In this document: positions 3,501 to 50,520 of the stretch, piece after piece | How positions within the stretch are numbered: position 1 is the first letter of the stretch | Layout: each line of letters begins with the position of its first letter | Source: an uncultured archaeon | GTDB lineage: Archaea > Aenigmatarchaeota > Aenigmatarchaeia > QMZP01 > JACQNV01 | Reading direction: 5' to 3' | Assembly (NCBI GenBank): GCA_964631205.1 | Contig: CAZVWU010000001.1 | Location: 28,346 to 92,345 of the forward strand | DNA length: 64,000 bases | Translations under genes and position numbers: made by a program | Notes under the pieces: model-generated | The model's database searches: none | What the model was told of the DNA's origin: nothing | The model's input: only the letters and a program-made list of their open reading frames with translations

Positions 3501-3549
3501 GGGACGAAACTGATTGCCTATCCAATTGATCTACAATCAGTTTCAACCT
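3501..3549 (-). repeat. Palindromic element family H (GAAACYGAT...ATCRGTTTCGTCC), copy inside intron 1 of tRNA-Arg(TCG)
   Basis: Minus strand reads GAAACTGATT-[19 nt]-AATCAGTTTC-GTCCC-TTTAAGG. 10-bp perfect stem. Confidence 0.6.
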
Positions 3550-3634
3550 TCTTTTTAAAAGGCTCAGAATTGAGCTACGGGCCCATCTTAAGTATATGCT
3601 GAATTAGTTAAATAGGTAAATAAAAAGGTAGTCT

Positions 3635-4786
3635 ATGGAGCAGATATTGGCTTTCATCCTGGGCAAAAATCCTGAGCTTTCAACAGCTGAAATTTTATCC
3701 TACCTTTCTGCAAGAGGGATTGTATCCGAGGTTTTGGCCAAAGAAGAGCAGTTTTTTATTTTAAAAATATCAGACCAAAGTCTGGACATCAAAATAGAAG
3801 ATCTTGGAGGCACAATAAAAATTTGCAGAATATTTCAAGTCTCAGAATCCATAAAGGTTGAAATAGAAAATATTTTCGATTTGAACAAGGGAAAAATAAT
3901 TTTTGGTTTAAGTTTTTATAATATTAAAAACTGGCAAAGCCTTTATACAGAAATCGGCAAACAGCTCAAACAGAAGCTAAGAGAAAAAGGGATAAAATCA
4001 GGCTACTTCCACTTGCCTAAAGGCAGAAGCTATCTAAGCCATGTAGAGGTTATCAAGAAGAATTTAGTAGAAAATGGGGAGGTTGTATTCTGTTTCTCGG
4101 GGGGAAAATACTATATTGGAAAAACAATCCAAGTCCACAATCCCTTTGAATTCCAGAAGAGAGATATAGGCAGGCCTGAACAGAGAGCAATATTCTCAAT
4201 CCCTCCAAGGCTGGCAAAAATAATGGTAAATTTATTAGGTATAAAGTCAGGGATTATATTAGATCCATTCTGCGGTATCGGGACTATCCTGCAGGAAGCT
4301 GTTTTGATGGGGTTTGATGTAAGGGGGGTTGATATAGATAAAAATTGTGCAGTTTCAGCGAGAAAAAATCTTGATTGGTTGAAAAAAGAATATAGTTTAG
4401 AATTGAAAGAATTAGATAAGAAAATAATTTCAGGGGATTCCAGGAAACTCTCTAAATATTTTGGTAAAGAACCAATAGACGGAATAGCCACAGAACCTTA
4501 CCTCGGCCCACCTTTGAAAAAATATACAGAGAGGAAAAAAGCCGAAAAAATCCTTTCGGAGCTGGACGAATTGTATACAAAAGTTTTGTCTGAATGCCAT
4601 AAAATCCTGAAGTCAAGTGGGAGGGTTTGCATAATTTCCCCAAGGATAAAATTAGGCAATTCCACAATAAGCCTGAATATGCCAGAAATCTGTAAAAAAA
4701 CTAATTTCCAATTACTCCACACCTACACAGACTCCGAAGAAAGGCATCGCCTTATCAGGGAGATAAATGTGCTGGAGAAGGTCTAA
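3635..4786 (+). CDS. THUMP-domain tRNA (guanine-N2)-methyltransferase, Trm11/Trm14-like
   Basis: 383 aa. The C-terminal Rossmann domain has the SAM motif LDPFCGIGTILQEA. The N-terminal region resembles THUMP. Confidence 0.55.
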   Translation: MEQILAFILGKNPELSTAEILSYLSARGIVSEVLAKEEQFFILKISDQSLDIKIEDLGGTIKICRIFQVSESIKVEIENIFDLNKGKIIFGLSFYNIKNWQSLYTEIGKQLKQKLREKGIKSGYFHLPKGRSYLSHVEVIKKNLVENGEVVFCFSGGKYYIGKTIQVHNPFEFQKRDIGRPEQRAIFSIPPRLAKIMVNLLGIKSGIILDPFCGIGTILQEAVLMGFDVRGVDIDKNCAVSARKNLDWLKKEYSLELKELDKKIISGDSRKLSKYFGKEPIDGIATEPYLGPPLKKYTERKKAEKILSELDELYTKVLSECHKILKSSGRVCIISPRIKLGNSTISLNMPEICKKTNFQLLHTYTDSEERHRLIREINVLEKV

Positions 4787-6204
4787 TCTAAAGCTCTAAC
4801 CAACTTCTCCCTTATCTCTTTCGCATCCACCTGGCCTTTCGTCTCTTTCATTACCTGCCCAACCAAAAACTCGAGGGCCTTCTTTTCTCCGGATTGGTAA
4901 TCATTTACTGGTTTCTGGTTATTTTCTATTATTTTTTTAATTATATTTTCCAGATCAAGCTTTGTTTTCAGTAAATTGTATTTCTCCACAATCTCTTTTG
5001 CATCCCTTTTCTCCTCCACCATTTTCCTTATAGCGATCTCTGCATTCCTGTCTGTTATTTTTCCCTCTTCAAAAAGTTTCAATAAATTTATTATCCAGTC
5101 TTTTTCAAGGCCGGTCTGCTTAAACCTGAGGTTATTCCAGTTCAGCGTCTTCTTTAAATCGCCTGCAATAAAGCTTCCTGCAATTTTTGGGTCTATTTTT
5201 TTTGAGGCCTCCTCAAACAGTTCAGCAATATCGATTTCAGAAACAAGCGACTCTGCGACAGCTTCAGCCAATTTGTAATCTTTCATGAATCTCTTGTATT
5301 TCTGGTCAGGCAATTCAGGCAATTCCTTCTTCAGCGTCACTGCAAGCTGCTTCTGTACAGTAAATTTAGGCAGGTCAGGCTCCATTATATAACCGTATTC
5401 AGCCTCGGCTTCCTTTCCCCTCATTTCTTGGGTTGTCCCCAAATCAGGGTTCCAGCCCCTAGTCTGCATTTTAACCTGAACACCTCTTGTGAGCAAGCTG
5501 GCCTGCCTAATCATCTCATATTTCAAGGCATCCTCAACCTCTTTCTGGCCTGTAATATTTTTTATCTCAACCCTGTTGCCTGTTATCCCTTCACCATGCA
5601 TCGAAATATTTGCATCGCTTTTCATCACGGCCTGTGAAGTTGTGTCATAGATTCCAATATACTCCAGAATTGTTGTCAGCTTCTGCAAATACAGCCTCGC
5701 CTCCTGTGGGCTTTCAAATTCAGGCTCTGTTACTATTTCAATAAGAGGTATACCTGCCCTGTTGTAATCAACCAGAACATATTTCCCCCCAAGCCCGCCG
5801 ACATGAACTATCTTTGCAGGGTCCTCTTCTATATGTATCCTTCTTATTGTAATTTTCTTTTTCTTCCCATTCACATCTATTTCCAAAAACCCTCCAGAAG
5901 CAAGCGGGATTTCATATTGGGTTATTTGGTAATTCTTCGGCATGTCAGGATAAAAATAAGTTTTCCTTGAAAAATACATCTCATCCGCAATTCTGCAGTT
6001 CAGTGCAACGCCTACCTTTGTGGCCAGCTCGACAACTTTTTTGTTTAAGGCAGGCTTTGAGCCAGGCATCCCAAGGCATATCGGGCATGTAAGGCTGTTC
6101 GGCTCCGGCTCCTCTTTCAGATTCACCGGATTCCTGCAGCCGCAAAAAATCTTTGTAAGGCTGTTCAATTGGACATGGGTCTCAAGGCCTATCTTGACCT
6201 TCAT
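4783..6204 (-). CDS. gatB: Asp/Glu-tRNA amidotransferase subunit B (GatB)
   Basis: 473 aa. The N-terminus MKVKIGLETHVQLNSLTKIFCGC is the GatB/GatE hallmark. The length fits GatB rather than GatE. Confidence 0.8.
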   Translation of the reverse strand: MKVKIGLETHVQLNSLTKIFCGCRNPVNLKEEPEPNSLTCPICLGMPGSKPALNKKVVELATKVGVALNCRIADEMYFSRKTYFYPDMPKNYQITQYEIPLASGGFLEIDVNGKKKKITIRRIHIEEDPAKIVHVGGLGGKYVLVDYNRAGIPLIEIVTEPEFESPQEARLYLQKLTTILEYIGIYDTTSQAVMKSDANISMHGEGITGNRVEIKNITGQKEVEDALKYEMIRQASLLTRGVQVKMQTRGWNPDLGTTQEMRGKEAEAEYGYIMEPDLPKFTVQKQLAVTLKKELPELPDQKYKRFMKDYKLAEAVAESLVSEIDIAELFEEASKKIDPKIAGSFIAGDLKKTLNWNNLRFKQTGLEKDWIINLLKLFEEGKITDRNAEIAIRKMVEEKRDAKEIVEKYNLLKTKLDLENIIKKIIENNQKPVNDYQSGEKKALEFLVGQVMKETKGQVDAKEIREKLVRALD

Positions 6205-6317
6205 ATCAAGAAGTAGAATGTTTAGAAATATATAACTATTTCAGATACTTTACCATAATGATCTCATCAGCATACACTCCTTTTATTTTCCTGCCTTTCT
6301 TGATCCTCCCAATTTCT

Positions 6318-7496
6318 TTAAATCCTGATTTTGTGTAGAGTTTTTGGGCCCTTTTGTTGTTGCTGAAAACGCTTAGTTTTATGATCTCTATTATTAATTA
6401 AGATCCTATTGGTCGGTTTCTGCTTTCTTATTCTATAAATAATATAGAATAGCATTAAGTGCCTAATTATTACAAAGAAAAAGGTCAGGTAAAGAAGCTC
6501 TATGATCTCTTTATGGGCAAACCACCAGAATAGGACGAAGAAAAAGACAAGCATATTGGAGGCTTCTAGCGAATAGAAAACCCTCTTCCTGAAATCCAAT
6601 ATAACAAAGAAGACGAGGGTCCACAAAAGGAACTGCGGGGAGAAAACCTTATTGAAAAAAAGAAAAAGCATGATCGAGAGGGAGCAGAGTTCAAAAAAAT
6701 CGCTATTTCTCCTCAAGACAACTAAAAACATATAGAAAGCTCCAAACATGCCCAAAGAAATTATATTAATCATCGATGAGCTTAGAGAAGGAATAAAAAA
6801 TTGGATAACACCAAAAATAGAGTCGTAGTTTGCTGATCTTGTACTATGAAAATTATAGGTAAACAGCCACCCATTGAAATCGGCAAATATGAAATAGCTG
6901 TTCACAAGCAAAAAAGTTAATGCAAAAATAGCGAGGACCTTAAATCTATCTTCCTTTTTGGTTTTCATCAGGAGAGGGATCAAAAATACTACAGGAAATA
7001 TTTTGGAGCTTAAACCTAAAGACAAGGCTATAGAAGATTGTACAGGCTTATTTTTGATGAAAAAATAAAAAGACATCGAAACAAACATCGTGGCAATTAT
7101 ATCCCAGTTATAAATTACAAAGAAAAGGAATGTCGGGGTTAAAATCCAAAAATATAGCATTTTTTTCTTGTCAATTTTTAAGGCATCCACTATTTTATAT
7201 AAAAATATTGATGTTATTACAGCAAAAAGTGTGAGGAAAATCGAGCTCACAATATAATAATAGTTAGGCCCTGAAAATCCCATCACGTGTATAAATATCC
7301 CGGTTATTACAGGATATTCTATTTCCTTTTCGATGTATGGCAATCTAGAGTCTATGGCTTTTTGCTGAAAGACAGCCACATCGCTGTAGCCTATATAAGG
7401 AGGTATCAGACTGTTAAAGCCAGGATAGCTTACCAAAGAAGATAAAGTCGAGACTACAGAAGCTAGGATTATAAAATAAAGTAATTTATTTTCCAT
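6318..7496 (-). CDS. Polytopic membrane protein, probable GT-C-type glycosyltransferase (DUF2029-like)
   Basis: Very hydrophobic with about 10 predicted TM helices. The likely start is the internal Met, MENKLLYF. The gene is divergent from a GT39 gene and they share a TATATATAT promoter region (7497-7561). Confidence 0.4.
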   Translation of the reverse strand: MENKLLYFIILASVVSTLSSLVSYPGFNSLIPPYIGYSDVAVFQQKAIDSRLPYIEKEIEYPVITGIFIHVMGFSGPNYYYIVSSIFLTLFAVITSIFLYKIVDALKIDKKKMLYFWILTPTFLFFVIYNWDIIATMFVSMSFYFFIKNKPVQSSIALSLGLSSKIFPVVFLIPLLMKTKKEDRFKVLAIFALTFLLVNSYFIFADFNGWLFTYNFHSTRSANYDSIFGVIQFFIPSLSSSMINIISLGMFGAFYMFLVVLRRNSDFFELCSLSIMLFLFFNKVFSPQFLLWTLVFFVILDFRKRVFYSLEASNMLVFFFVLFWWFAHKEIIELLYLTFFFVIIRHLMLFYIIYRIRKQKPTNRILINNRDHKTKRFQQQQKGPKTLHKIRI

Positions 7497-7543
7497 ATTA
7501 CAGATTTTGCAGACTATTTGTATGAATATTATATATATTCTCT

Positions 7544-8959
7544 TTGCAACCAATAAATAACATGATAGAAAAAATACTGTGGAAAAATGCTATATTAATT
7601 CTTCTCATCCTCTCTTTTTTCCTGCATTTCTGGGGACTGGAAAACCCGAACGAAGTTGTTTTTGATGAGGTCCATTTCGGAAAGTTTGCGAGCAGTTACA
7701 TGAATAAGAGCTACCACTTTGATGTGCATCCGCCACTTGGCAAAATGATCATTGCTGCGGGGGGAGCACTCACTGGATTTAAACCAGGATTCAATTTCGA
7801 AACTATAGGGCTTAAGTACCCAAATCCCGCTTATTATGGACTAAGATTTTTCCCGGCTCTTGCAGGCGCACTCATACCCCTCTTAGTTTATCTGATATTA
7901 AGAAATCTCGGCGTCTCAAAAAAAATAGGCATACTCGGGATGTTGATCGTAATCTTCGAGAACTCTTTACTAACAGTATCGAGGTTTATTCTCATAGACA
8001 TCTTCCTTATTTTTTTCGGCCTGGCAGGATTGCTCTTTTATCTGATAAGCAGGAAGCAGAAAGATGGAAAGGGAAAGATTCTTGCGCTTTTGGTTTCTGG
8101 CCTTTTTCTAGGGGCCGCTTTCAGCATAAAATGGACAGGCTTAGTTTTCTGGTTTCTAGTGCTTTTAATGTCCTCGACTAATTTAATAAGGCATTTAATC
8201 AAAAAGCATCCAGAAAAAATCAAACCAATTATAATCTTCTCGGTATCAATAATTCTAGTGCCTTTGATTTTCTACACTTCTGTCTTCGCGCTCCATTTTC
8301 ACCTCCTTCCGTATTCTGGGCCTGGAGACCCTTTCATGACACCTCTATTCCAATCAACGCTTATAAACAATCCAAATTATAATCCAGATAACACAGTAGG
8401 CTTTTTCGAAAAATTTGCAGAGCTTAACCGTGTCATGCTCTCTGCAAATGCAGGCATAACAGTCACCCATCCCTATTCAATAAGCTGGTACTCCATGCCA
8501 ATTATGTACCGCTCCTTGTATTATTGGACGAAAACAGAAAATGGACTGCTGGTTTCTAGAATATATCTTTTAGGCAACCCATTTGTCTGGTGGAGCGTTC
8601 TAGTCTCAATAATATTATTTTGTTGCATGCTCGGACACTATGCAATTAAAAGAAAGTGGAGAAAGTTAAATGAAAAAGAGCTTCCAATCTTTTTATTAAT
8701 TGCATATCTCCTAAATGTATTTACATTTGCATTCATCTCGCGTGTACTATTCATCCACTACTACTTCCCATCTCTTGTCCTAGGAATAATTTTATTTTGC
8801 CTAACAACACAAAAACTTTTCGAAAGAAACCAAAAGCTTTTCTGGGGCTTCATAATTTTGATAATCGCCTCATTTATCTTTTTCAGCCCGCTGACTTATG
8901 GTATTCCACTTGATAATTTTTCTTATAACATAAGGAACTGGCTGCCTAGCTGGATTTAA
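7544..8959 (+). CDS. Dolichyl-phosphate-mannose protein mannosyltransferase family (GT39/PMT-like) glycosyltransferase
   Basis: 471 aa multi-TM protein. The motif FDEVHFGKFA...DVHPPLGKM is the GT39 N-terminal loop signature. The probable true start is at 7562 (MIEKILW). Confidence 0.75.
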   Translation: MQPINNMIEKILWKNAILILLILSFFLHFWGLENPNEVVFDEVHFGKFASSYMNKSYHFDVHPPLGKMIIAAGGALTGFKPGFNFETIGLKYPNPAYYGLRFFPALAGALIPLLVYLILRNLGVSKKIGILGMLIVIFENSLLTVSRFILIDIFLIFFGLAGLLFYLISRKQKDGKGKILALLVSGLFLGAAFSIKWTGLVFWFLVLLMSSTNLIRHLIKKHPEKIKPIIIFSVSIILVPLIFYTSVFALHFHLLPYSGPGDPFMTPLFQSTLINNPNYNPDNTVGFFEKFAELNRVMLSANAGITVTHPYSISWYSMPIMYRSLYYWTKTENGLLVSRIYLLGNPFVWWSVLVSIILFCCMLGHYAIKRKWRKLNEKELPIFLLIAYLLNVFTFAFISRVLFIHYYFPSLVLGIILFCLTTQKLFERNQKLFWGFIILIIASFIFFSPLTYGIPLDNFSYNIRNWLPSWI

Positions 8960-9351: not shown

Positions 9352-9375
9352 ATCAGCCTCATATCAGCCCCTCAG

Positions 9376-9416
9376 CTGGACATGGGTCTCTTGCCATCCA
9401 GATTTGTGTCATCCCT
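9376..9416. repeat. Palindromic element, P-variant (same termini, different core)
   Basis: CTGGACATGGGTCTCTTGCCATCCAG-ATTTG-TGTCATCCCTT. It overlaps the last codons of thpR and lies 25 nt upstream of the start of the 8956 gene. Confidence 0.5.
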
Positions 9417-9969
9417 TAAGGCTAAAACTTTCGATTTCTGTATAAATGGGCCCCTTCCCTGTTAGGGTACTTTTGAAAAGTTTTATCTCGCTGACCCCCA
9501 TCTCCCCGATAACGGATTTTTCAATGGATTTTATTTTTTCCAGGATTCTTCCCTTTTCTTTCACAAATCCAGCCCTTGCAATTGTAAGGTGCGGGTGCTG
9601 ATCATAATCTTCTTCCCTTACATCCCTCAACAAATTATTCAGCTCCTTTTCCATCTCAATTATAACTTCCCTCCCTTTCCCAACATCCAGAAAAATCACC
9701 CGAATAAATTTCGGCGGATTGAAAAAAGATAATTCTTCAAGTGAAAGTGTAAACTGTTTAAACTTCCCTGACACCAATTTTATCCTTTCTGCTATTTCTT
9801 TAACAGTGTTATCTGGAACTTCGCCCAAGAACTTCAGAGTCAGATGCAAATTTTCAGGCTCAACAAGCTTTATTTCTTTTCTGTTAGAGAATTCCTCAAA
9901 ATTTTTCTGCATACAGGCTATTTTTTCTTTTAAGCCTTCAGAAAGTTCTATTGCGACAAACAACCTCAT
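9409..9969 (-). CDS. thpR: RNA 2',3'-cyclic phosphodiesterase / 2'-5' RNA ligase (LigT/ThpR, 2H family)
   Basis: 186 aa with two H-x-T-x motifs, HLTLKFLG and HLTIAR. Confidence 0.8.
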   Translation of the reverse strand: MRLFVAIELSEGLKEKIACMQKNFEEFSNRKEIKLVEPENLHLTLKFLGEVPDNTVKEIAERIKLVSGKFKQFTLSLEELSFFNPPKFIRVIFLDVGKGREVIIEMEKELNNLLRDVREEDYDQHPHLTIARAGFVKEKGRILEKIKSIEKSVIGEMGVSEIKLFKSTLTGKGPIYTEIESFSLKG

Positions 9970-9988
9970 ACCTGATATTTTTTTCTTT

Positions 9989-9999
9989 GGGTTATAAGG
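9989..9999 (-). promoter_or_regulatory. Motif X copy positioned as a TATA box for thpR
   Basis: On the minus strand CCTTATAACCC is centred about 27 nt upstream of the thpR ATG at 9969. This is consistent with a leaderless promoter. Confidence 0.45.
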
Positions 10000-10152
10000 T
10001 TTTTCCTTGTAAATGTTTTCTTTTGGTTATACCTTCTTTTGTAAAAAAAAGGTATACCTTCACGCAACTTCACACCATCAAGATATATAAATCACCAGAC
10101 TATATCTTAGTTTATCACAAATGAACAAATAAGCTTTGCTTGGAGCCAACCT

Positions 10153-11223: not shown

Positions 11224-11304
11224 CCGATTCTGGAAAAGAAATGCTAGAAAGTTAGCTTTTTAAGTATATCTGATATTATATATACAGGAGAAGAATAAGG
11301 AGAT

Positions 11305-13039: not shown

Positions 13040-13057
13040 ATTTTTCCACCTCCCCAA

Positions 13058-13104
13058 CTGGACATAGGCCTTATCTTGTTGGTCAAGGCCTATGTCATCC
13101 CTTT
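13058..13104. repeat. Palindromic element family P (GACATAGGYCTT-N12-AAGRCCTATGTC, flanked by CTG...ATCCCTT)
   Basis: CTGGACATAGGCCTT-ATCTTGTTGGTC-AAGGCCTATGTCATCCCTT. 12-bp perfect inverted repeat. It lies about 20 nt upstream of the start of the 12794 gene. Confidence 0.6.
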
Positions 13105-13106
13105 GC

Positions 13107-19698: not shown

Positions 19699-19703
19699 AA
19701 TAG

Positions 19704-19748
19704 TTGGAAATAGACTTCCGTGTTATCCAGTGTCTATTTCATCCCCTT
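19704..19748 (-). repeat. Hairpin element in the aIF5A 5' leader (related architecture)
   Basis: Minus strand reads AAGGGGATGAAATAGAC-[16 nt]-GTCTATTTCCAAC-TATT-ATG. 9-bp stem. Confidence 0.45.
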
Positions 19749-19801
19749 CAACTCCTTAAAAACAAATATAGTATATACTCTTATAATATTAAATAGCTTA
19801 A

Positions 19802-19938
19802 CGGGCCCGCAGAGATTCGAACTCTGATCACAACCTCCGCAAAGTTGCATCCTATCCATTATCTGTAAACTCTTTCTTTTCCCGATAAGGGCTTTTCTTT
19901 CTTTAGAAAGAAAAGGGCTTACATTAGACGACGGGTCC
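19802..19938 (-). tRNA. tRNA-Arg (anticodon GCG) with an intron of about 65 nt in the D-loop
   Basis: The 3' exon (19802-19856) is GATAGGATG-CAACT-TTGCGGA-GGTTG-TGAT-CAGAG-TTCGAAT-CTCTG-CGGGCCC-G. The 5' exon (19922-19938) is GGACCCGTCGTCTAATG. The acceptor stem has one A3:C70 mismatch. TAATG occurs at both junctions, so the exact boundary is ambiguous. A TATA (tttataaatat) lies about 27 nt upstream. Confidence 0.5.
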
Positions 19939-20096
19939 TTGCCGATTTATTGTATATTTATAAATATCTTATGTAAATAAGGTATACTTATGAAAAGTGT
20001 AAATCCCTTCTTCTGGGTTATAAGGCTTTTCAAGATTGAATCAACTGCAGAAAGAAAATGTTTTCTTTCTGGGTTATAAGGCTCTTTCGTCTTCAG

Positions 20097-20127
20097 CTGG
20101 AAACCGATTCGAAAATCGGTTTCGTCC
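20097..20127 (+). repeat. Palindromic element family H, minimal copy
   Basis: CTGGAAACCGATT-CGAA-AATCGGTTTC-GTCC, about 20 nt upstream of the zinc-ribbon/EF-1beta operon. Confidence 0.6.
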
Positions 20128-20131
20128 GTTT

Positions 20132-20150
20132 AAAGAAAGAGGGTATATAT
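20132..20150 (+). promoter_or_regulatory. Motif Y (AAAGAAAGARGGGTATATAT)
   Basis: There are two copies: 3366-3385 (inside tRNA intron 2) and 20132-20150 (overlapping the zinc-ribbon ATG). A purine-rich BRE-like run is followed by a TATA-like run. Confidence 0.35.
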
Positions 20151-21162: not shown

Positions 21163-21696
21163 TTACTTTTTCTTCTCTTTGGATTCTTTTTTCTTTGCAG
21201 GTTCCAGTTTTTTTGTTTCAATTGTCATATCGCTTAGCGAAATTGGCTTTTTCTCCTTTTCCTGCTCAAGCAATTTCGCTTTTTCTGCAGCAAGGTCGCT
21301 TATTGTGACAGGCTTTTCTTTCTTCGGCTGCTCTTTTGGCTTTTCAGCTTCAGCCCTCTTTTTTATTTCATCTTTTTTATATGCCTTTTCAGTTTTCTGC
21401 TCATTCATCTTTTTTATCTCTTCATCTGACGGGATTTTCAATTTGAATTTCTCCAGAACTTCGGCTTCCTTTTTCAGGAGTTCGAGTATCTCCTCGTCCC
21501 CCGAATCAGCTTTTATTTTTATTTTTGCCTGAAGCGGTTCAAGGTGCTCTATATTGCATTTGCGTTTCCTTACTCCAGTCAGGATTTTCGGGCCTGTGAC
21601 AAAAACAAAATCTTTCCCAGATTTGTCCAGAACTACGCAAAGCTTCCCTGCTTCCCTGCCTGCTGTTTTCAAGCACAACCTTCCTGTTTCAAACAT
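21163..21696 (-). CDS. rpl14e: Ribosomal protein L14e (eL14) with a long K/E-rich C-terminal tail
   Basis: KOW-like N-terminus GRLCLKTAGREAGKLCVVLD. Confidence 0.65.
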   Translation of the reverse strand: MFETGRLCLKTAGREAGKLCVVLDKSGKDFVFVTGPKILTGVRKRKCNIEHLEPLQAKIKIKADSGDEEILELLKKEAEVLEKFKLKIPSDEEIKKMNEQKTEKAYKKDEIKKRAEAEKPKEQPKKEKPVTISDLAAEKAKLLEQEKEKKPISLSDMTIETKKLEPAKKKESKEKKK

Positions 21697-21763
21697 ATAG
21701 GTAACCTAAAGAAGAATGAAAATAGGTTCTCATTCAATTTTTTCAAGAACCTATTTCTATCCT

Positions 21764-22051
21764 CTAGTCCTCTAACCCTCCCTTAATTTTCAAGAACCTG
21801 CTTTTTACTTCAAGCCTCATGCAGGATGAGCACAAATTCCCGCCATAAGGCCTGTCAGGCCTGTATTTAGACCCTGCCAGCTTATGTAGCTTTGCCTGCC
21901 TTAGCCTCGGGATCCCAGACAGCTCTGATTTGCATGCAGCACAGCTGGCCTTCTCCGGCCTTCTCCTCTCATAGTGCACAACATTTTTCCCACTGGGCCT
22001 GACCCTTTTTATTTTTCTCAGCTTTGTTGACCTCAATGCTCTTCTTACCAT
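21764..22051 (-). CDS. rpl34e: Ribosomal protein L34e (eL34)
   Basis: C4 motif CAACKSEL...CSSCMRL, very basic. Confidence 0.8.
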   Translation of the reverse strand: MVRRALRSTKLRKIKRVRPSGKNVVHYERRRPEKASCAACKSELSGIPRLRQAKLHKLAGSKYRPDRPYGGNLCSSCMRLEVKSRFLKIKGGLED

Positions 22052-27333: not shown

Positions 27334-27771
27334 TTATATCATCCTATCTATCAATTCATTAATTTTCTCCTTCCTGTACCCGTAATCCCCTTTTGGATAA
27401 GCCTGTTTTACTGAGCTGTAGCCTTTTGAAGGCGGGGAAAGCCTTAGAGGCAGTTTTATTTCCAAATTTTTATGTGATTTCTCTTTTAGAAGTTTTTCTA
27501 ATTCCTCTTTCGCTTTCTTATCATCTAATTTTTTATTCCCAGCGAGCCTGCCCCGTTTTAACAATAAATCCAGAAGTGCCTTTTCACTAATTTCCCCCCA
27601 AGTTAGGTAAGTTCTTGCTTTTTTGAGCATCCCGCCTATAATAGGGTTTTTTGGGTACAACATGCAATTATTAACCTTTTTTAATTTCAGCATCTCCATT
27701 GTATCCTCTATTTCTTTTCTCGCATTCACGCTTCCCCTTATCCGGATAATTGCATAAAGATCTGTGCTCAT
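27334..27771 (-). CDS. rpl30: Ribosomal protein L30 (uL30)
   Basis: Starts YAIIRIRGSVN, the archaeal L30P form. Confidence 0.85.
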   Translation of the reverse strand: MSTDLYAIIRIRGSVNARKEIEDTMEMLKLKKVNNCMLYPKNPIIGGMLKKARTYLTWGEISEKALLDLLLKRGRLAGNKKLDDKKAKEELEKLLKEKSHKNLEIKLPLRLSPPSKGYSSVKQAYPKGDYGYRKEKINELIDRMI

Positions 27772-28580
27772 ATGTCCCCTTTAACTTTACTCAAATTTTT
27801 TAGCGCATTGAAAACAGCAAATGCAAGGTTGATTCTTGATGCTGTCTGGCCTTCTGAGTTTACCCATACGTCTGTTATGCCTGCGAGCTTAAGGATTTTT
27901 TTGGTCTCTTCGCTTGCAACTATCCCTATCCCTTTTGGCCCTGGATTTAAGGTCACTGTAACAGAACCGTGCTTTGCTGAAACTTTGAAAGGTATTGAGT
28001 GCGTTGTCCCGCAAAAGCATTCCCAGCTTCCACAACCCCTTTTGACTTTTATCACATTCAATTTTGCCTGGTTGACAGACTTCTCTATTGCCTGCCTATG
28101 CTCTTTTGAGGAGGCTTTCCCTATCCCCACAACACCATCCTGGTTACCTATAACAACAAGGGAAGATGAGTTATACCTTCTTCCAGACTTATGCATCCTT
28201 GCAGTTATTCTTGTCGCAGTCCTTTTTATTCCGCCGCCTTTTCCCGGAGTCCCGCCGATGTAAATTATTTCCTGCTTGACTGAAGGTATAAGATAATCTA
28301 TTATTTCCGGCTCGAGGATTAGACGCCCGCTGTCCAGAACCTGCATTATATCAGTATATTTTCCAGCAACTATGTCCTTGCCTAATTGCGTTTTTGGTAT
28401 CCACGTGGTTTCCTTGCCTTTTTCTGATTTTATAATGCCTTTTACACCTTCATCCTTCTTAATCTCCTCCACAGCTGCCGGTATTTCTGCTGCAACCTCC
28501 TCAACCACGTCAGCTGGACGCTGACCGTCGTCCCTTTCCTCATTTTCGAGTTTTTCGTCTGCCATAAAATATGATCGCAA
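27768..28580 (-). CDS. rps5: Ribosomal protein S5 (uS5)
   Basis: The C-terminal domain (KRGCGSWECFCG...GPKGIGIVA) is typical. The N-terminus has an acidic extension. Confidence 0.85.
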   Translation of the reverse strand: MRSYFMADEKLENEERDDGQRPADVVEEVAAEIPAAVEEIKKDEGVKGIIKSEKGKETTWIPKTQLGKDIVAGKYTDIMQVLDSGRLILEPEIIDYLIPSVKQEIIYIGGTPGKGGGIKRTATRITARMHKSGRRYNSSSLVVIGNQDGVVGIGKASSKEHRQAIEKSVNQAKLNVIKVKRGCGSWECFCGTTHSIPFKVSAKHGSVTVTLNPGPKGIGIVASEETKKILKLAGITDVWVNSEGQTASRINLAFAVFNALKNLSKVKGDI

Positions 28581-29914: not shown

Positions 29915-29920
29915 AAACAG

Positions 29921-29966
29921 CTGGAAACCGATCTTATATGATTTGTTAAAGATCGGTTTCGTCCCT
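29921..29966 (+). repeat. Palindromic element family H
   Basis: CTGGAAACCGATC-[17 nt]-GATCGGTTTC-GTCCC. On the minus strand it ends TTTCCAG, 6 nt before the cobO ATG. Confidence 0.6.
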
Positions 29967-30024
29967 CTAAAAAACAAAATATATTTGTTTTCAGGCTAAA
30001 TAAAGATTTTCAAAAAAACCCGGC

Positions 30025-39074: not shown

Positions 39075-39179
39075 TTTTTAGTGGCGGGTAGTTTAGATTT
39101 ATTGATGATGCATCAAAGTTTGTTTATAAATACTGATACACTATATATACTAAAATATTTGAAAGGGGAGTGAAAACTA

Positions 39180-39224
39180 GGATGAAATTGATCTCAAAAA
39201 TCAGATAAGAGATTAATTTCCAAC
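39180..39224 (+). repeat. Degenerate H-like hairpin in the psmA 5' leader
   Basis: GAAATTGATC...GATTAATTTCCAAC-CGATAT-ATG. The TTTCCAAC-N6-ATG tail is shared with the aIF5A leader. Confidence 0.4.
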
Positions 39225-39230
39225 CGATAT

Positions 39231-42282: not shown

Positions 42283-42293
42283 ATGGAGGGATT

Positions 42294-43058: not shown

Positions 43059-43115
43059 GCGGATGAAGTCATGGCATATGACCATTTATACCATTAGGAT
43101 AAGATAAAGAAGATT

Positions 43116-43331: not shown

Positions 43332-43352
43332 GTATAGCAAGTTTCGTATGTT

Positions 43353-43499: not shown

Positions 43500-43561
43500 A
43501 ATGCGCAGAATAGATTTTCTACCTATCAACTCTTTTAACCCACTTAATATTTGCACAGTTT

Positions 43562-43897: not shown

Positions 43898-43969
43898 CGA
43901 TTTTTTAAACTATGGGCTAAAATATTTCAACAAGTATATAAACATCTTGCACTATTAATATAATCAAAG

Positions 43970-44329: not shown

Positions 44330-44416
44330 TGCCAAATGCCGGTTGGAACTGATTGCAGATCAATTGGACAGGCAATCAGTTTGTGATCTCTTTAAGCCAA
44401 CAGCTTACTCTAATTT

Positions 44417-44617
44417 ATGACTTCAGCCAAACTTGTAGCAGTCTGGATATCAGGCGGCATCCTTTTTCTGTTAGGCTCTTGGATAATAAACAATTTAAAA
44501 TTAGGCCCAGGCGTTTCTGATATACAATATGCCTTTGCATTGCTCCTAGCACTTGCTTTTTACTTAGTCGGAGGCCTTGCATGGATTTCTGTGGCTGCAG
44601 CTGCAAGGCACGGGTAA
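44417..44617 (+). CDS. Small membrane protein (2 TM)
   Basis: 66 aa, hydrophobic. Confidence 0.3.
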   Translation: MTSAKLVAVWISGGILFLLGSWIINNLKLGPGVSDIQYAFALLLALAFYLVGGLAWISVAAAARHG

Positions 44618-44630
44618 TCTGTTAAACAAA

Positions 44631-45317: not shown

Positions 45318-46794
45318 AATTATCAATCCTAACCTCTTTATTATCTGCCTTTATATTTATATTCTTAATAGAAGCCTCCTTCAACAAGGCATCTACCCTA
45401 TTTATAAAAATTTCAACAGCATCTGCAGGTATGGATGCTCCAGCTGCGCCAGCATGGCCGCCGCCTTCGCCGCCAACTTCTTTGGATGCTATCTCCATCA
45501 CCTCTTTCAGGTTTATACCATTTGATACTTCTTTGTCTGTTGCCCTTGCAGAGATTTTAAACCCCTCCTCTGACTGGGAAATTCCTATAAGCGGCTTGCT
45601 TATCCCATTGTTTTTATGCAGAATTGAAATCACATTTGAAATTATGTGCTCTGATATTCTGCTGCCGGCAAGGAGGTAAAGCCCGTTTTCGGTCTCCCTT
45701 TTTACTTTTTCCCTGTTCTGCTCAAGCCAGCTGAGTGCAGAACCTATTGTTCTTCTGTAATCATTAAGAATATTTTTTATTTTCTCTTCAGTTTTTTTAT
45801 CCCCAAGGCAAAGTTGCAGCCCTAAATGCGCATTACCCATTTTCCCGCATGCATTTATCATTGTCGCAAATTCTGCAGCATCCCTGAGGTCTTCTGGTCT
45901 GTCGACAAGATCATACACATCCCCGAAAATCCACTCAGGGTTTTCATGGTTCGCATGTACCCTCTGGATTATTATTCCAGAGGCAAGCTTCCTCTGCTCC
46001 TCAACCGAAAGGTCAGAAAGCGTCCTCCATGAGCCGTCCTCCCTTTTCATCTCTATCCCAATCTGCTGCAGAAAAGCAACAGCCCCCATCTGGGACCCAG
46101 AAACTCCAGGTATGAACGGGTTAATTGAATATTCAAGGGCCTTGTAGATTGGTCTTGTTGTCCTTCCCCAGACCCTCAACCCTTTTCTTGAGCTGACTTT
46201 ATTAGCATCTATAGCATCTTTCAAAATAATTTTATTGATCCCGTCCAGGCCCCAGCCGTCGCCTGAGGAGTCTGCCTGAGAATCTCCTATTGCGCCGATT
46301 ATTGCCAGCTCGGCCATATCCATATTCGAATTGTCAACAGCCTTCGAAACCAGATAGCTTGTCCCTGAGCTCGAGATGCTGCCCATAATTCTAAAATCTA
46401 TTGGGTTCACCTGAATGATATGACTTTCGGGGATTCCCTGCGGCTGGTGGTGGTCAATTATGATTATTTTTTTGTCCTTCATGGAATTCAAAAATCCCAG
46501 CTGGCCTGACCCAAAATCCAAAAAAACAAGAAGCCCTTCCTTGCTCTCCCCTACTTTCAACTGGTTTGCCCTTGTCAGCTGTTTGTAAATGCTCACATGG
46601 AAAGGCTTTCCCTCCCTCAGCAAAGTTTTCACAAAAATTGAAGTCGCGGTTATTCCGTCGGCATCATACTGACCGAAAACCCTTATAGTATCGGAATAAG
46701 ATTTCACAAGCCCCGCTGCTTTTTTTGCCTGGCTGACCAAAGAATCCAGACCTTCAATCATAGAATACTTATATAAGAAGAAGTTTATATTCAA
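45157..46794 (-). CDS. DHH-family phosphoesterase (archaeal RecJ/Cdc45/GAN-like)
   Basis: Contains DADGITATSI, DHH (IIIDHHQP) and a DHHA1-like GGGH region. The C-terminal tail is Gly/Ala/Glu-rich. Confidence 0.7.
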   Translation of the reverse strand: MNINFFLYKYSMIEGLDSLVSQAKKAAGLVKSYSDTIRVFGQYDADGITATSIFVKTLLREGKPFHVSIYKQLTRANQLKVGESKEGLLVFLDFGSGQLGFLNSMKDKKIIIIDHHQPQGIPESHIIQVNPIDFRIMGSISSSGTSYLVSKAVDNSNMDMAELAIIGAIGDSQADSSGDGWGLDGINKIILKDAIDANKVSSRKGLRVWGRTTRPIYKALEYSINPFIPGVSGSQMGAVAFLQQIGIEMKREDGSWRTLSDLSVEEQRKLASGIIIQRVHANHENPEWIFGDVYDLVDRPEDLRDAAEFATMINACGKMGNAHLGLQLCLGDKKTEEKIKNILNDYRRTIGSALSWLEQNREKVKRETENGLYLLAGSRISEHIISNVISILHKNNGISKPLIGISQSEEGFKISARATDKEVSNGINLKEVMEIASKEVGGEGGGHAGAAGASIPADAVEIFINRVDALLKEASIKNINIKADNKEVRIDNYGKAGSEKIGAERQGQAEAGSGKAAEGSGETTGNKIRVSKKVEGKGLVQYFVS

Positions 46795-46816
46795 ATTCTG
46801 AAAATAATTTGGAAAT

Positions 46817-47269
46817 TTATTTCACTAACAGCACAGCCCTTTCCGGATCGTACTTCCAGCCTGATGGAAGGGTTTTTGTCCTAATGTAGTATTTTGCGAG
46901 CCTCCTGATTTTTGATTCTGTCAGCTCCAAACCCCTGTATGAGGTGTAATCCTTCTTGTTTTTTTGGAGATGGAATCGAAGGTTGACTGCCTTTTTCAGA
47001 AGATTAATCATGTCTTCAGGAAGTTCTGGGTAGGTTTTGTTATCCTTCAGTATTGTTGTGACAGGCTTGGATTTTACAGCCTTTACTGAAGGGACTCCGT
47101 ACTGGTCCCTTAAAACCAAGCCTATCTTTGCCGACTGCATGCCCTGCCTTGAAAGTTTCAAAACAATCTCCTCAACTTCCTTTGGCGAATATGTGACCCA
47201 AGGGGCTATTTTTTGTAGCGGCTTTTTGCTTCCATGCTTCCCCTTTTTCCTTGAATGCATCCGTGCCAT
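46817..47269 (-). CDS. rps15: Ribosomal protein S15 (uS15, S13e type)
   Basis: 150 aa, starts MARMHSRKKGKHGS. Confidence 0.85.
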   Translation of the reverse strand: MARMHSRKKGKHGSKKPLQKIAPWVTYSPKEVEEIVLKLSRQGMQSAKIGLVLRDQYGVPSVKAVKSKPVTTILKDNKTYPELPEDMINLLKKAVNLRFHLQKNKKDYTSYRGLELTESKIRRLAKYYIRTKTLPSGWKYDPERAVLLVK

Positions 47270-47313
47270 AAGTTAAAATATAGTTATATAATAATCAGCT
47301 ATTTAAATGATGC

Positions 47314-49182
47314 TTAAGATTCTTCTTCCCTATCCCCGTCTTCTTCCCCTAAATCCTCCTCTTCAAATTCTTCATTCCCAAATATGTCCTCCTCCTTTTC
47401 CGGCTCTTTTTTCTTTTTAATTTTGAGGAAATAGAATGCAGCCCCGCCTGCAATAACGAGAATAATTAAAAATATTGTCAGGATGCCAGGCCCGCCGCCT
47501 TCATCAGTTTTGGATTTTTCCGAGGTTGTTTCTTGATCATCAATTAACGTCACTCCATTCCCCGACTCTGGGCTTGTTTCAACAACTTGCGCACATCCCC
47601 TGCCCTCCTTATACTTGCAGCGAGCAGTATTGTTGCATGCCCTTGTCTGGAACTCATCGGAAGCGCAGTTTTCAGGCCTCCATTGACCGCAGTCAGCAGA
47701 CTCATCACATGTGATAGCGGAGGAGCTGACCCTGAATGACTGGTTCTTGGACGCAAATGCTGTTATCCCATTATATTGGGCCTCGCAATTCCATTTGTAA
47801 TCTCCGTCAGCAACATACTCTTCCTTAAAATTCACCCTATAAGGAGATTTGGAGCCTTTCACAGAAATAGAGGCCGTGGGCTTCCATTCGCCTGATGTAT
47901 CAGTATAAAGGCTTAGGATACCAGGTTTTTTGCCTGCTGCTTCGCAGACGAAATTCACGTATTTCGTTTTAACAGTTGCAGCAGGCTCCAATAAAACAAC
48001 GTTAAAAAATTCAAAGATTATTTCAGCTTCCCTTGTCTGCTGCTGTTGCGGGTATTGCACATGGCTGCAGGAAACAGTGTATGAAACTTTTGCCGGTTCT
48101 TCGAATTTTCTTGAATATTCATATCCAATATCCTGCACAAATGCCATAGGGTGGAAAGACTGGCTGTCGCTGAAGGAAATTTTGCATGTCCCATCGTTAA
48201 TAAGCTTTAAAAGGCCTGTAGAATTCTGGGAATATGCAGCAAAAAATTTGACAGTCTTGTTGTCAGCAGTTTCAGGCGCATGCCAAATCTCTATGAAATT
48301 AGAGGTTTGGGATTGCTGGGTTGGGGTAGGAGTTGGTGAAGCTGATGTTGTGGGTGATGGGGATCCAGAAGCTGAAGGGCTGGGTGTAGCAGTCTGGGTT
48401 GGTGTAGGAGTTGTTGGTGGAGCAGTAGGTATCAATGAATTTATATCAGCAGCAGAAAGCGCAGTATTGTAAAACCTTACATCATCTATTATTCCCCTAA
48501 ATGCAGTTGATGATGGGTTTTCAGCGCCTATATAGAGATCCCCTGTGTTTGTAGTGGTTGTCCCAGGAGGGTAACATGTATTTTTCAATTGGCCATTAAC
48601 ATAAATTTGAACTGTTGGACCATCATAGGTTACTGCTGCATGGTACCATGTATTTGGAGAAATTGTAACCCCAGAATCACAAGTGACTCCATTAGCCGTG
48701 CTTATGCTATACTTTAAAGTGCTTTGGACATACAGAGATAATTGCACAGGATTTCCTTGCGCATCTAACACATTGTCTCTTTTACTCATTAATGTTTGCG
48801 ATCCAGTAGAAGTCTGTTTAAACCATATACCCATTGTGAAGCTGTTGAGGTTGTTTATCCTTGCTGAATTTTGGACTTTTATATGATAGAATTTAGTTGA
48901 AAGATCCAACCCGCCCCGAATCCTTCCATTGGCAGTCCATGGGGCATCTGTCACTGGATTTCCGGCATCATTGTTCACTTTGCCTATATCATCACCGCCT
49001 GCTGAATCAGATGCTGTTGGCAAGGTTGTTTCATCAAGGGTCCAGTGGGCTACAAGGGATTGTGCGACCTGGTTGCCAGACAATTGCAAATTCGCAAAAT
49101 TAGCCACTGCAACAACAGCGACAACCACTGCGAGAATCCCTGCAGCTACACCTGCCTGACCTTTCAGCCCTTTTTTAAGCAT
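47314..49182 (-). CDS. Cell-surface protein with a pilin-like class III signal peptide, LamG/ConA-like domain, Pro/Thr-rich linker, Cys-rich domains, C-terminal TM and an acidic tail
   Basis: N-terminus MLKKGLKG-QAGVAAGILAVVVAVVAV. LamG motifs (GIWFKQ..., GIIDDVRFYNTALSAADINSL). PT-rich linker. C-terminal TM ILTIFLIILVIAGGAAFYFL followed by an E/D tail. Confidence 0.55.
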   Translation of the reverse strand: MLKKGLKGQAGVAAGILAVVVAVVAVANFANLQLSGNQVAQSLVAHWTLDETTLPTASDSAGGDDIGKVNNDAGNPVTDAPWTANGRIRGGLDLSTKFYHIKVQNSARINNLNSFTMGIWFKQTSTGSQTLMSKRDNVLDAQGNPVQLSLYVQSTLKYSISTANGVTCDSGVTISPNTWYHAAVTYDGPTVQIYVNGQLKNTCYPPGTTTTNTGDLYIGAENPSSTAFRGIIDDVRFYNTALSAADINSLIPTAPPTTPTPTQTATPSPSASGSPSPTTSASPTPTPTQQSQTSNFIEIWHAPETADNKTVKFFAAYSQNSTGLLKLINDGTCKISFSDSQSFHPMAFVQDIGYEYSRKFEEPAKVSYTVSCSHVQYPQQQQTREAEIIFEFFNVVLLEPAATVKTKYVNFVCEAAGKKPGILSLYTDTSGEWKPTASISVKGSKSPYRVNFKEEYVADGDYKWNCEAQYNGITAFASKNQSFRVSSSAITCDESADCGQWRPENCASDEFQTRACNNTARCKYKEGRGCAQVVETSPESGNGVTLIDDQETTSEKSKTDEGGGPGILTIFLIILVIAGGAAFYFLKIKKKKEPEKEEDIFGNEEFEEEDLGEEDGDREEES

Positions 49183-49200
49183 TAATAGTATTAGATTGAC

Positions 49201-49232
49201 TTCAATAAAAAACAAAAAGGGGGTTTATCCCC
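49201..49232 (-). terminator. GC hairpin plus T-tract downstream of ftsZ
   Basis: The minus strand reads GGGGGATAAACCCCC followed by TTTTTGTTTTTTATT. Confidence 0.45.
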
Positions 49233-49236
49233 CGGA

Positions 49237-49283
49237 AAAGGGATGACATAGGTCTTCTTCAATTGGTCAAGACCTATGTCCGC
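49237..49283. repeat. Palindromic element family P
   Basis: AAGGGATGACATAGGTCTT-CTTCAATTGGTC-AAGACCTATGTCCGCC. It lies between the ftsZ stop and the terminator hairpin. Confidence 0.6.
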
Positions 49284-49292
49284 CTGAATCGG

Positions 49293-50420
49293 CTACCCCT
49301 CAACAAAAACTTTTATTCCAAATTCCTCAGACAGGTTATGGGTCGTGGCCTCGGTTTTGATCTTTGCCTGCTTTTGGCCAAATGGGCCGATTATGTAAGG
49401 CGAGTTCACACCTGTTATTATTGTTATAACCCTTACTTTGCCGCCAAAATTCGGGTCTATTCTTGATCCCCAGATAACCTGCGCATCTGGGTCAAGCTGC
49501 TTTGAGACGTATTCGCCGATCAGGTTAACTTCCTCAAGTTTTAGGTCTGGCCCACCTGTTATGTGAAGTAAAGCTCCTGACCCTCCTGTATAGTCAACAT
49601 CAAGCAACGGATTTGTTAAAGCCTTAACAACAGCATCCTCTGCCCGGTTGTCTGTATCAGATTCCCCAAATCCAACTGTGGCAACCCCTCCTGAATGCAT
49701 GATTGTTTTCACATCTGCATAATCCAGGTTTACAAGAGACGGCATTGAAATCGTTTCTGTGACCCCCTTTATCATCGTGGCGATAATATTGTCAGAAACT
49801 GCAAAAGCCTGTTCAATCGGCAGGTCTCCTGCAACTCTTAGCAGCCTGTCGTTTTCGATCACAATTGCAGTGTCACAGTATTGCCTTAATTGGAACAACC
49901 CATCTTCTGCCTTTGCCATCCTTGCGCCTTCTATTTTGAAGGGCATTGTCACAGCTCCGATAACTATAGAGCCGAGCTCCTTTGCAATCCTTGCAACTTC
50001 AGGAGCTGAACCTGTTCCTGTACCGCCGCCCAAGCCTGCAACAACATAAACCATGTCGGCATCTGCTAAAACTTTTTTTATGTCCTTTTCATTTTCAAGC
50101 GCAGCCTTTTTGCCAACTTCCGGATACCCTCCTGCGCCAAGCCCCCTTGTAAGCTCTTTTCCGATCAAAATTTTATTGTGCGCGTTTGTCCTTGTCAGGT
50201 GCTTGACATCTGTGTTTAAGGCAAGCGTCTTTGCGCCTTCGACACCCATTGTTGTCAGCCTGTTTATTGTATTTGAGCCGCCGCCTCCGCAGCCGGCAAC
50301 AACTATCCTTGCATCCTTCAAATCTATCCCAAACTGCTCCTGGATGGATTTCCTCTGCAGTTCACGGTCCATAGGCTCCTTGAATGTATTGTCAAAGACC
50401 TTTTCGACTATTGAATTCAT
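49293..50420 (-). CDS. ftsZ: Cell division GTPase FtsZ
   Basis: GGGTGTG-type motifs ([14 protein letters not shown]). The start is the internal Met MNSIVEK. Confidence 0.9.
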
Positions 50421-50440
50421 ATTACCTCCCTTACTAGGAT

Positions 50441-50520
50441 GGAAACTGATCAACAAATGGTTGACATCGATCTTATCCAATTGTTTAGGATCGCGTCTCG
50501 CAGAGTATATGATCAGTTTC
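50441..50520 (+). repeat. Palindromic element family H, long-loop copy upstream of ftsZ
   Basis: GGAAACTGATC-[59 nt]-GATCAGTTTC-GGCTCC. Its loop shares ATCCAATTG with the copy at 3501..3549. Confidence 0.5.

Follow-up and report, generated by a model that had tools for sequence, protein, structure and literature searches.

What is the same perfectly paired hairpin doing at unrelated places along one stretch of archaeal DNA, inside a tRNA gene in one case and shortly before start codons in others? The stretch, called the window here, comprises 64,000 nucleotides of contig CAZVWU010000001.1 from an uncultured archaeon of the Aenigmatarchaeota. A preliminary description of this DNA named the hairpins family H and offered two readings, a mobile element of the MITE kind (miniature inverted-repeat transposable element) or a modular RNA hairpin. 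We find that family H is the best-conserved branch of a larger palindrome superfamily, whose units come and go as whole blocks from one related genome to another and leave no target-site duplication. These units occupy intergenic spacers, the stretches from promoter or Shine-Dalgarno-like sequence to start codon, insertions in genes for tRNA and rRNA, other units' loops and, in one case, an in-frame protein tail. The superfamily probably represents short (~30–100 bp), non-autonomous mobile DNA palindromes of one Aenigmarchaeota (DPANN) lineage, akin to repetitive extragenic palindromic sequences (REPs), Rickettsia palindromic elements (RPEs) and MITEs, because whole blocks are present or absent at given sites, one unit lies in frame in rpl29, near-identical copies are dispersed, units are nested, and none occurs in the syntenic segment of a relative (L100).

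Family H and the larger superfamily

The four hairpins lie at 3506–3544 (minus strand), 20100–20123, 29924–29960 and 50442–50520, and in all four the inverted repeat GAAAC[CT]GAT[CT]…[AG]ATC[AG]GTTTC is perfect over 10 bp, enclosing loops of 19, 4 (CGAA), 17 and 59 nt in copies 1 to 4, respectively, as had been described. The sequence TATCCAATTG is indeed common to the loops of copies 1 and 4. The conserved flank GTCC(C/G)T(T/C)T proposed for the whole family holds for three copies and fails for copy 4, at ftsZ, where the plus strand reads GGCTCCCT and the other strand CATCCTAG. The hairpins exceed chance numbers in the window, where GAAACYGATN{4,34}ATCRGTTTC matches three times against 0.00 expected from 100 shuffles, and where eight of the nine exact GAAACYGAT words pair up as the four hairpins. 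Two variable stem positions show all four compensated combinations among these copies (TT/AA, CT/AG, CC/GG and TC/GA). Full units, with scores from a covariance model built on 35 copies and run without filters, are as follows.

Copy 1: 3496–3552, minus strand; stem GAAACTGATT/AATCAGTTTC, 19-nt loop with CAATTGG, tail GTCCCTTT; 56.2 bits, E 3e-20; in the first (~130-nt) insertion of a three-piece tRNA-Arg(TCG) gene.
Copy 2: 20092–20133, plus strand; CAGCTG, then GAAACCGATT cgaa AATCGGTTTC, then GTCCGTTT; 53 bits; 25 nt 5' of the ATG at 20149 of a Zn-ribbon/EF-1beta operon.
Copy 3: 29916–29970, plus strand; 17-nt loop; 63.6 bits, E 2.5e-23; flanked by an aminoacyl-tRNA synthetase stop codon and the ATG of cobO (29914, minus strand).
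Copy 4: 50441–50520, nested unit with no strand assigned; outer stem GAAACTGATC/GATCAGTTTC, its loop holding an inner unit of the same family (50453–50505, minus strand, ATGGTTGACATCGATC…; 22.2 bits); ends 20 nt upstream of the ftsZ ATG at 50420.

To define the unit, we gathered ~40 copies from the window and from loci of metagenome-assembled genomes (MAGs), of which 35 were aligned for stem statistics. The element takes the form YTG, GAAACNGATY, loop, RATCNGTTTC, GTCCCTTT, and the collected copies have in common a 5' tag (tCAGCTG or aAGGYTG), the stem and the 3' tag. The 10-bp stem is 98.6% paired in the alignment, a figure that is partly by construction as copies were chosen for at least 8/9 arm complementarity; independent of this selection are the ratio of double to single changes and the scarcity of G-U pairs. 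Five of the ten pairs are invariant and the other five have changed on both sides, with one-sided changes almost nil and a single G-U per ~350 stem pairs. Pairing of the Watson-Crick kind on both strands, together with the use of both orientations, points to a constraint on DNA; the alternative is that a hairpin is needed whichever strand is read.

The covariance model recovers 11–12 distinct loci in the window at E<1e-3, and a scan for a stem starting with GA and ending with TC, then RTYC, gives 10 window matches versus 1.4 in shuffles. A unit of the superfamily consists of an unpaired 5' tag (…YTG), a 9–12-bp stem with GA start and TC end, a loop, and the 3' tag RTCCC, usually followed by T's. 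At least 11 such copies lie in the window, about one per 5–6 kb. Besides the degenerate fifth copy already noted in the psmA leader, which the model detects with an E-value of 7e-6, they include a sixth close copy and at least five members with different stem sequences that had been overlooked. The stems that the model detects beyond family H include GACATAGG (13053 and 49235), GAAATAGAC (19699), GAAAATAGG (21711) and GAAACAGGC (55179).

psmA unit, 54 nt: 39177–39230, minus strand; ATATCGGTTG, then GAAATTAATC…GATCAATTTC, then ATCCTAG; 21.4 bits; directly precedes the psmA ATG (39231), the hairpin proper (39184–39220) stopping 10 nt before it.
Decaying copy: 44334–44400, plus strand; stem ends mismatched; 19.6 bits; starts 5 nt past the sepF stop and is 88% identical to copy 1 over ~70 nt, loop included.
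Superfamily member: 49235–49288, minus strand; stem GACATAGGTCTT/AAGACCTATGTC, CCAATTG in the loop, tail ATCCCTTT; 39.9 bits; between the ftsZ stop and the next gene.
Superfamily member: 13053–13106, plus strand; GACATAGGCCTT…AAGGCCTATGTC, then ATCCCTTT; 20 bits; abuts, on the upstream side, the Shine-Dalgarno-like GGGGAGGTG of a minus-strand gene.
Superfamily member: 19699–19750, plus strand; TTG, then GAAATAGAC…GTCTATTTC, then ATCCCC; 25.4 bits; ends 8 nt ahead of the aIF5A ATG (19698, minus strand).
Superfamily member: 21711–21767, plus strand; GAAAATAGGTTCT…AGAACCTATTTC, then TATCCTCTAG; upstream of the ATG at 21696 (minus strand).
rpl29 unit, ~33 nt: 55179–55217, minus strand; GGCG, then GAAACAGGC aaa GCCTGTTTC, then ATCCCCCTAG; 18.8 bits.
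Weak decayed candidate: 9371–9420, plus strand; CAGCTG, then GACATGGGTCT…AGATTTGTGTC, then ATCCCTTA; 12.7 bits, E 0.03.

Units fall into three size classes. Short ones have tetraloop-like loops, one of them being a loop-less 16-bp palindrome, GAAACCGATCGGTTTC; in medium units the loop is centred on CCAATTGG in either orientation; and long units, of 77–81 nt, enclose a further unit in the loop, complete with tags of its own, at three loci (window 50442, L056 1506 and L060 6574, the L numbers denoting loci of related genomes). A minimal look-alike at 28509–28539 (CAGCTG, then GACG ctgac CGTC, then GTCCCTTT; 17 bits, E 5e-4) lies within the 5' part of the ribosomal protein S5 gene (27768–28580, minus strand) and could be a second intragenic relic or a chance match.

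Gain and loss between related genomes

The relative L100, whose FtsZ is 93% identical and whose DNA is ~76–83% identical, is collinear with the window from 39.2 to 56.4 kb, and over these 17.3 kb the covariance model finds no match in L100 versus five in the window. At psmA the window carries a clean 54-nt block between GTGAAAA and the ATG that is absent from L100. Within rpl29 (54986–55291, plus strand) the 33-nt unit lies in frame and adds ~11 residues, ARGMKQALPVS, to the C-terminal tail; it is absent from both L100 and L060. Neither junction shows a duplication of 2–3 nt or more, so that the target-site duplications proposed as a mark of mobility are missing at the two clean junctions. Both units end in …ATCC(CCC)TAG followed by a T-run, which hints at a T-rich target for insertion.

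Other sites give the same picture of whole units gained or lost, which the preliminary description had put forward as the comparison to make. The ftsZ leader holds the nested unit in the window, a simple unit with the same rare GAAACTGAT stem in L056, and nothing in L100, with decayed hairpins remaining in L101 and L103. An element upstream of rps15 in L056 is absent at the orthologous site of the window, as is an element that L088 carries between two ribosomal-type genes; conversely, the window unit at 21711 (a ~60-nt block) is absent from L088. The copy at 44334, after sepF, has no counterpart in L095 or L100, where the site is not alignable or the unit is absent, and at the 49235 site L100 keeps only a one-armed relic. 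In the Zn-ribbon leader the window has its family H hairpin and L088, at the same place, a GACATAG-type hairpin, GACATAGAT…ATCTATGTC followed by ATTCCCTTT. Of the proposal that family H is a MITE-like or mobile element, mobility is thus supported by the comparison with related genomes; a MITE in the strict sense is not, as no target-site duplication was found, nor any parent insertion sequence in the sequence examined, and many units span only 30–55 bp.

Copies also appear to have spread within single genomes. The units at L023 7743 and L044 3724, unrelated loci of one MAG, agree in 51 of 54 nt, which indicates what looks like recent copying, as does the 88% identity of copy 1 and the sixth copy (44334) in the window. 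To see how widely the element occurs, we scanned one genome per species with the pattern GAAACNGATN{4,34}ATCNGTTTCGTCC, which yielded at least 80 loci. Among the matches listed, 21 are archaeal and fall in three MAGs (13 in CAYYYJ01, six in JACQNV01, labelled Aenigmatarchaeota, and two in DATDTO01), and the other ~60 loci are matches in unrelated genomes, nearly always single. The free N…N position is complementary in 20/21 of these archaeal matches versus 24/67 of the others listed. A stricter pattern found 15 metagenome loci or contigs, all of 36–43% GC, and viral contigs gave three isolated matches with no further copies there. The scanner reports 80 matches in 292 kb of related sequence, a density biased upward since these loci were fetched for containing the motif.

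Three further features of these syntenic regions deserve mention in their own right. Upstream of ftsZ, a ~100-nt non-coding block (~50535–50640, minus strand), with the hairpin CAGACAATTGGGGATTGTCTG and GGTTTAAAAAGTGTTTGTATAC in it, shows higher conservation than the adjacent coding DNA in L056, L100, L101 and L103; it is probably the ftsZ promoter with the start of a long leader, or a small RNA. On the 3' side of ftsZ (~49200–49240, minus strand) there is a GC-rich hairpin with a T-run, CCGGGGGATAAACCCCCTTTTTGTTTTTT, conserved in L100 as GGGGGCATGAAAACCCCCTTCTTTTTT, that looks like an intrinsic terminator, unusual for an archaeon. Finally, an open reading frame (ORF) at 44427–44618 (plus strand), just past the decayed hairpin, encodes 63 residues of hydrophobic, membrane-like character and is conserved as a 66-residue gene in L100.

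Leaders, RNA genes and rival explanations

The placement of the copies bears directly on what they are. With genes taken from simple ORF calls, spacers hold 16 copies in tandem, 10 in divergent and one in convergent arrangement, versus 20.5, 7.4 and 2.7 kb of such DNA, and coding sequence is avoided with the one exception of rpl29. The distances to start codons given in the preliminary description are correct (6 nt for cobO, 20 nt for ftsZ and 10 nt for psmA), and at psmA, aIF5A and the gene at 21696 the hairpin sits between a promoter- or Shine-Dalgarno-like sequence and the start codon. Orientation relative to the downstream gene is mixed, however, and the distance varies from 0 to 60 nt, so that the association with start codons largely reflects where non-coding room exists in a compact genome; an association with promoters was considered and vanishes after allowing for spacer lengths.

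The explanation that survives best beside mobility, improbable as we consider it, is a cis-regulatory or processing RNA hairpin of the host, transcribed in leaders, introns and rRNA spacers, where it would be bound by a protein, stabilise 5' ends or modulate translation, with the tail's purine-rich complement (AAAGGGAC, GGAGGAT) and its own pyrimidine sequence acting as Shine-Dalgarno and anti-Shine-Dalgarno mimics. Many copies do end 3–60 nt ahead of a start codon, covariation is strong, the hairpin has been kept upstream of ftsZ in the window and L056 with decayed ones in L101 and L103, and upstream of the Zn-ribbon gene the window and L088 carry hairpins of different stem at one and the same place. 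The elements nevertheless lack the fixed orientation and position, and the tolerance of G-U pairs, that would mark such an RNA: they lie in both orientations relative to the host transcript, G-U pairs are essentially absent, and their position relative to genes is that predicted by available spacer length, with no fixed distance to the start codon. Moreover, one copy lies in a coding region, and L100 appears to run psmA, ftsZ, rpl29 and sepF without the elements. No Rfam 15 family reaches its gathering threshold in the window, and copy 1 gives only spurious sub-threshold matches.

Still less probable is a palindromic duplex site for a host protein, such as a transcription factor acting between divergent promoters, or a nucleoid or topoisomerase site of the sort that some REPs have been proposed to form. 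The sequence of both tags and of five stem pairs is invariant, and in several relatives the hairpin lies exactly between outward-facing motifs that resemble a transcription factor B recognition element (BRE) with TATA box (…TATACCC-CTTTCTT-[H]-AAGAAAG-GCCTTATAACCC, where [H] is the hairpin). Half-sites that are anywhere from 0 to 61 nt apart would, however, be unfit for a single dimeric binder; between the two arms the variable stem positions covary, something that recognition of half-sites does not call for; and copies also lie in tRNA and rRNA insertions and in a coding region.

These insertions are a striking setting of the elements. The location of copy 1 in a tRNA intron is correct in substance: the gene (3297–3584, minus strand) is in three pieces, with insertions of ~130 nt in the D-loop and ~65 nt in the T-loop, and ARAGORN calls tRNA-Arg(TCG) once the pieces are joined in silico. 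Unjoined, the locus gives no ARAGORN call and an Rfam tRNA score of 22.5 bits versus a threshold of 29; indeed, neither ARAGORN nor Rfam at gathering threshold finds a tRNA anywhere in the 64 kb. Elsewhere, a copy lies inside a 131-nt insertion of tRNA-His (L076), two copies in a ~190-nt insertion of tRNA-Met (L008; orthologues in L048 and L097), and one in a ~480-nt insertion of 16S rRNA (L050), while at 23S a copy sits 24 nt past the 3' end and another probably inside the gene (L037). At least five different tRNA genes have a D-loop insertion with the hairpin ~25 nt from its 5' junction, and 12 of 24 T-loop motifs, used as tRNA proxies in the 292 kb, have a copy within 350 nt. That the hairpin is a structural module of such long insertions (introns), spread by intron transposition and only secondarily placed at protein genes, is the least probable of the three alternatives, for all that about half of the tRNA proxies, the recurrent D-loop position and the rRNA copies speak for it, since ~85% of copies lie away from any tRNA or rRNA gene, introns hold the hairpin in either orientation, the second tRNA-Arg insertion has no family H hairpin, and the element does not form a bulge-helix-bulge, in which two 3-nt bulges are set apart by a 4-bp helix at the intron boundaries (folding 40 copies with their flanks gave simple hairpins, or else added an outer helix of 5 bp across a symmetric 3x3 internal loop).

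Several observations on these RNA genes stand apart from the hairpin. Short direct repeats edge the tRNA-Arg insertions, namely TCTG(A/G) and a T-arm of ~22 nt in duplicate, GARGGTT(A)CGAWATACCCYTTC; repeats of this kind at the junctions make it ambiguous where exactly the interrupted tRNAs are spliced. Another tRNA-like gene with an interruption, at ~19790–19940 (minus strand), comprises GGACCCGTCGTCTAATG on the 5' side and, on the 3' side, the T-arm CAGAGTTCGAATCTCTG with the acceptor CGGGCCC; the palindrome CTTTTCTTTCTAAAGAAAGAAAAG lies in its insertion. The motif TTCTGGGTTATAAGGCTTTT, the complement of GCCTTATAACCC, recurs in the window at 3337–3356, 9985–10004, 20011–20030 and 20067–20086 and is probably a BRE/TATA promoter, to judge from a TATA that precedes the ATG at 9969 by ~26 nt; the second tRNA-Arg insertion holds one copy, just 5' of the last tRNA piece. 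In relatives two motifs of this type face outward around a family H hairpin, forming a ~140-nt composite in L088, of which the window has none. Against the archaeal small-subunit (SSU) model, the 16S gene of L050 (407–1512, MAG CAYYYJ01) shows a 48-nt insertion as well as the ~480-nt one, and the first ~700 model positions are missing from the locus; in L037 just the last 250 nt of 23S can be aligned. The 131-nt tRNA-His insertion (L076 3230–3370) surrounds its hairpin with AUGAUGA and CUGA boxes whose order is permuted, and might yield a C/D-box-like RNA if the excised piece is circularised.

Known motifs of other kinds were also considered and set aside. A K-turn or L7Ae site would call for tandem G·A pairs, which the consensus flanks lack; an intrinsic terminator does not agree with a tail of only TTT and many copies in divergent spacers, the true GC-hairpin with T-run beside one copy looking different; a TATA box in the 3' tail is contradicted by the variability of the bases that follow GTCCCTT; and integron attC sites, origin recognition boxes, parS and hammerhead cores bear only a superficial resemblance, which fits neither the copy distribution nor the conserved positions.

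Several points weigh against a mobile DNA palindrome. No transposase or nuclease gene was found beside any copy or in ~315 kb by a search that was shallow, and two approximate Y1 transposase queries gave no significant match in the same ~315 kb. ORFs flanked by two clustered copies are housekeeping genes only, the sequence examined contains no insertion sequence with these terminal inverted repeats, and a Pfam scan of 30 window ORFs detected no transposase except one tyrosine recombinase (57201–58391). With the closest non-identical relative at ~76–83% DNA identity, and no pair of loci in the range of 85% to 100%, an insertion is not distinguishable from an exact deletion. Distant relatives, too, carry hairpins at some of the sites, namely in the ftsZ leader and in the tRNA-Met and 23S insertions, and the Zn-ribbon leader has its different-stem hairpins in two genomes; there could be selection for a hairpin at such loci. 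Stem and tags are, furthermore, conserved across genomes whose genes are only ~70% identical, as purely neutral junk would not be. As to the recombinase gene (Phage_integrase), its 5' end holds one arm of a 32-nt, 84% complementary inverted repeat (57241–57272 and 60084–60115, 2.8 kb apart), and the region may be an integrated element or an invertible segment.

If the units are mobile DNA palindromes, the following mechanism would suit them. A trans-acting nuclease or transposase, comparable to the IS200/IS605 TnpA or a REP-associated tyrosine transposase (RAYT), would recognise the single-stranded DNA hairpin together with its tags; mobilisation would then require the hairpin, and stem pairing would be kept through compensatory change. 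Such a mechanism would explain why duplications are lacking, why losses look precise and why there are tags, and also how units come to be inserted in the loops of other hairpins, among them the D-, anticodon and T-loops of tRNA. A compact hairpin would also spare transcripts, 5' leaders and pre-tRNA among them, from harm by an insertion, a second force for stem pairing, and selection of this kind would explain compensatory change in situ and the retention of some orthologous copies. A bolder proposal, which we think unlikely, is that the hairpins are the active agent of an undescribed DPANN single-strand-DNA transposition aimed at hairpin loops, which would invade tRNA and rRNA loops as well as its own copies and, with the outward GCCTTATAACCC promoters, make multiply interrupted, possibly piecewise-transcribed tRNA genes. 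Were this loop-targeting transposition real, it would be a live model for the rise of split, multi-intron archaeal tRNA genes, and already a true link to tRNA gene disruption would make the origin of such genes testable.

For the genomes themselves, these data mean that tRNA genes of this lineage are missed by standard detectors and that protein lengths and 5' ends are liable to mis-annotation. Hairpin pairing is maintained by compensatory change across genomes, and copies are tolerated before start codons, in RNA-gene insertions and in a ribosomal protein gene; the repeats may serve as markers for strain typing and for tracing the enzyme that moves them.

Comparison with known palindromic repeats

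IS200/IS605 elements and their miniature derivatives, the palindrome-associated transposable elements (PATEs), have hairpin ends that act as single-stranded DNA next to short flanking cleavage sequences, and they move without target duplication and with precise excision. Such traits would fit the clean indels, the conserved tags and the insertion into hairpin loops seen here. IS200/IS605 elements have two different ends (left end, LE, and right end, RE) and insert next to a fixed tetra- or pentanucleotide, in contrast to the single hairpin per unit in this superfamily, in which no target recurs consistently, a T-run following the 3' tag being a possible exception.

Prokaryotic MITEs are likewise non-autonomous, multicopy and intergenic, with terminal inverted repeats round a variable interior and a presence that varies between genomes (PMC10969869). 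The present units differ in the absence of target-site duplication at the two clean junctions, no related insertion sequence was found in the sequence examined, and many units are far shorter, down to a 16-bp palindrome; as no parent insertion sequence is found and many units measure only 30–55 bp, REP/RPE-like is a better label than MITE. A 2024 review lists archaeal MITEs for Sulfolobus, Halobacterium, Haloquadratum, Desulfurococcus and a few others (PMC10969869), and our literature search found no report of small palindromic mobile repeats for DPANN or Aenigmarchaeota. Repeats of this kind are well known in bacteria and poorly documented in archaea.

Like the superfamily, RPEs are palindromes of a reduced genome that lie non-destructively in RNA genes and in frame in protein genes (PMC10969869). 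They are, however, ~100–150 bp long with a conserved peptide, and dozens are intragenic (PMC10969869), whereas the units described here span 30–80 bp and give the single in-frame case of rpl29.

The differences from REPs concern arrangement, ends and placement. The units have a …YTG tag at the 5' end and RTCCC at the 3' end, not a GTAG or CGTC tetranucleotide at one end, CGTC arising only where the last stem base overlaps GTC. Copies are single or nested, and the head-to-head dimers of REPs (REP doublets forming hairpins, REPINs, or bacterial interspersed mosaic elements, BIMEs) and regular inverted pairs were not seen; they are archaeal, and no RAYT was found in the ~315 kb. REPs lie mainly 3' of genes, between unidirectional or convergent ORFs (PMC3733652), whereas the elements here follow the spacer and often lie just before start codons. 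The likeness is close in other respects. REPs and REPINs are short palindromes with a conserved unpaired tag and tail, stems of 8–13 bp and variable loops, and their copies number from tens to hundreds, for the most part outside genes though now and then within one, with several stem variants per genome (PMC3733652); the CGTC REPs, like these elements, have no identified transposase (PMC3733652, Di Nocera et al. 2013). The palindromes of this archaeal lineage are multicopy in the manner of REPs, which measure 20–40 bp: the 64 kb hold at least 11, and among the matches listed one MAG has 13 exact-pattern copies.

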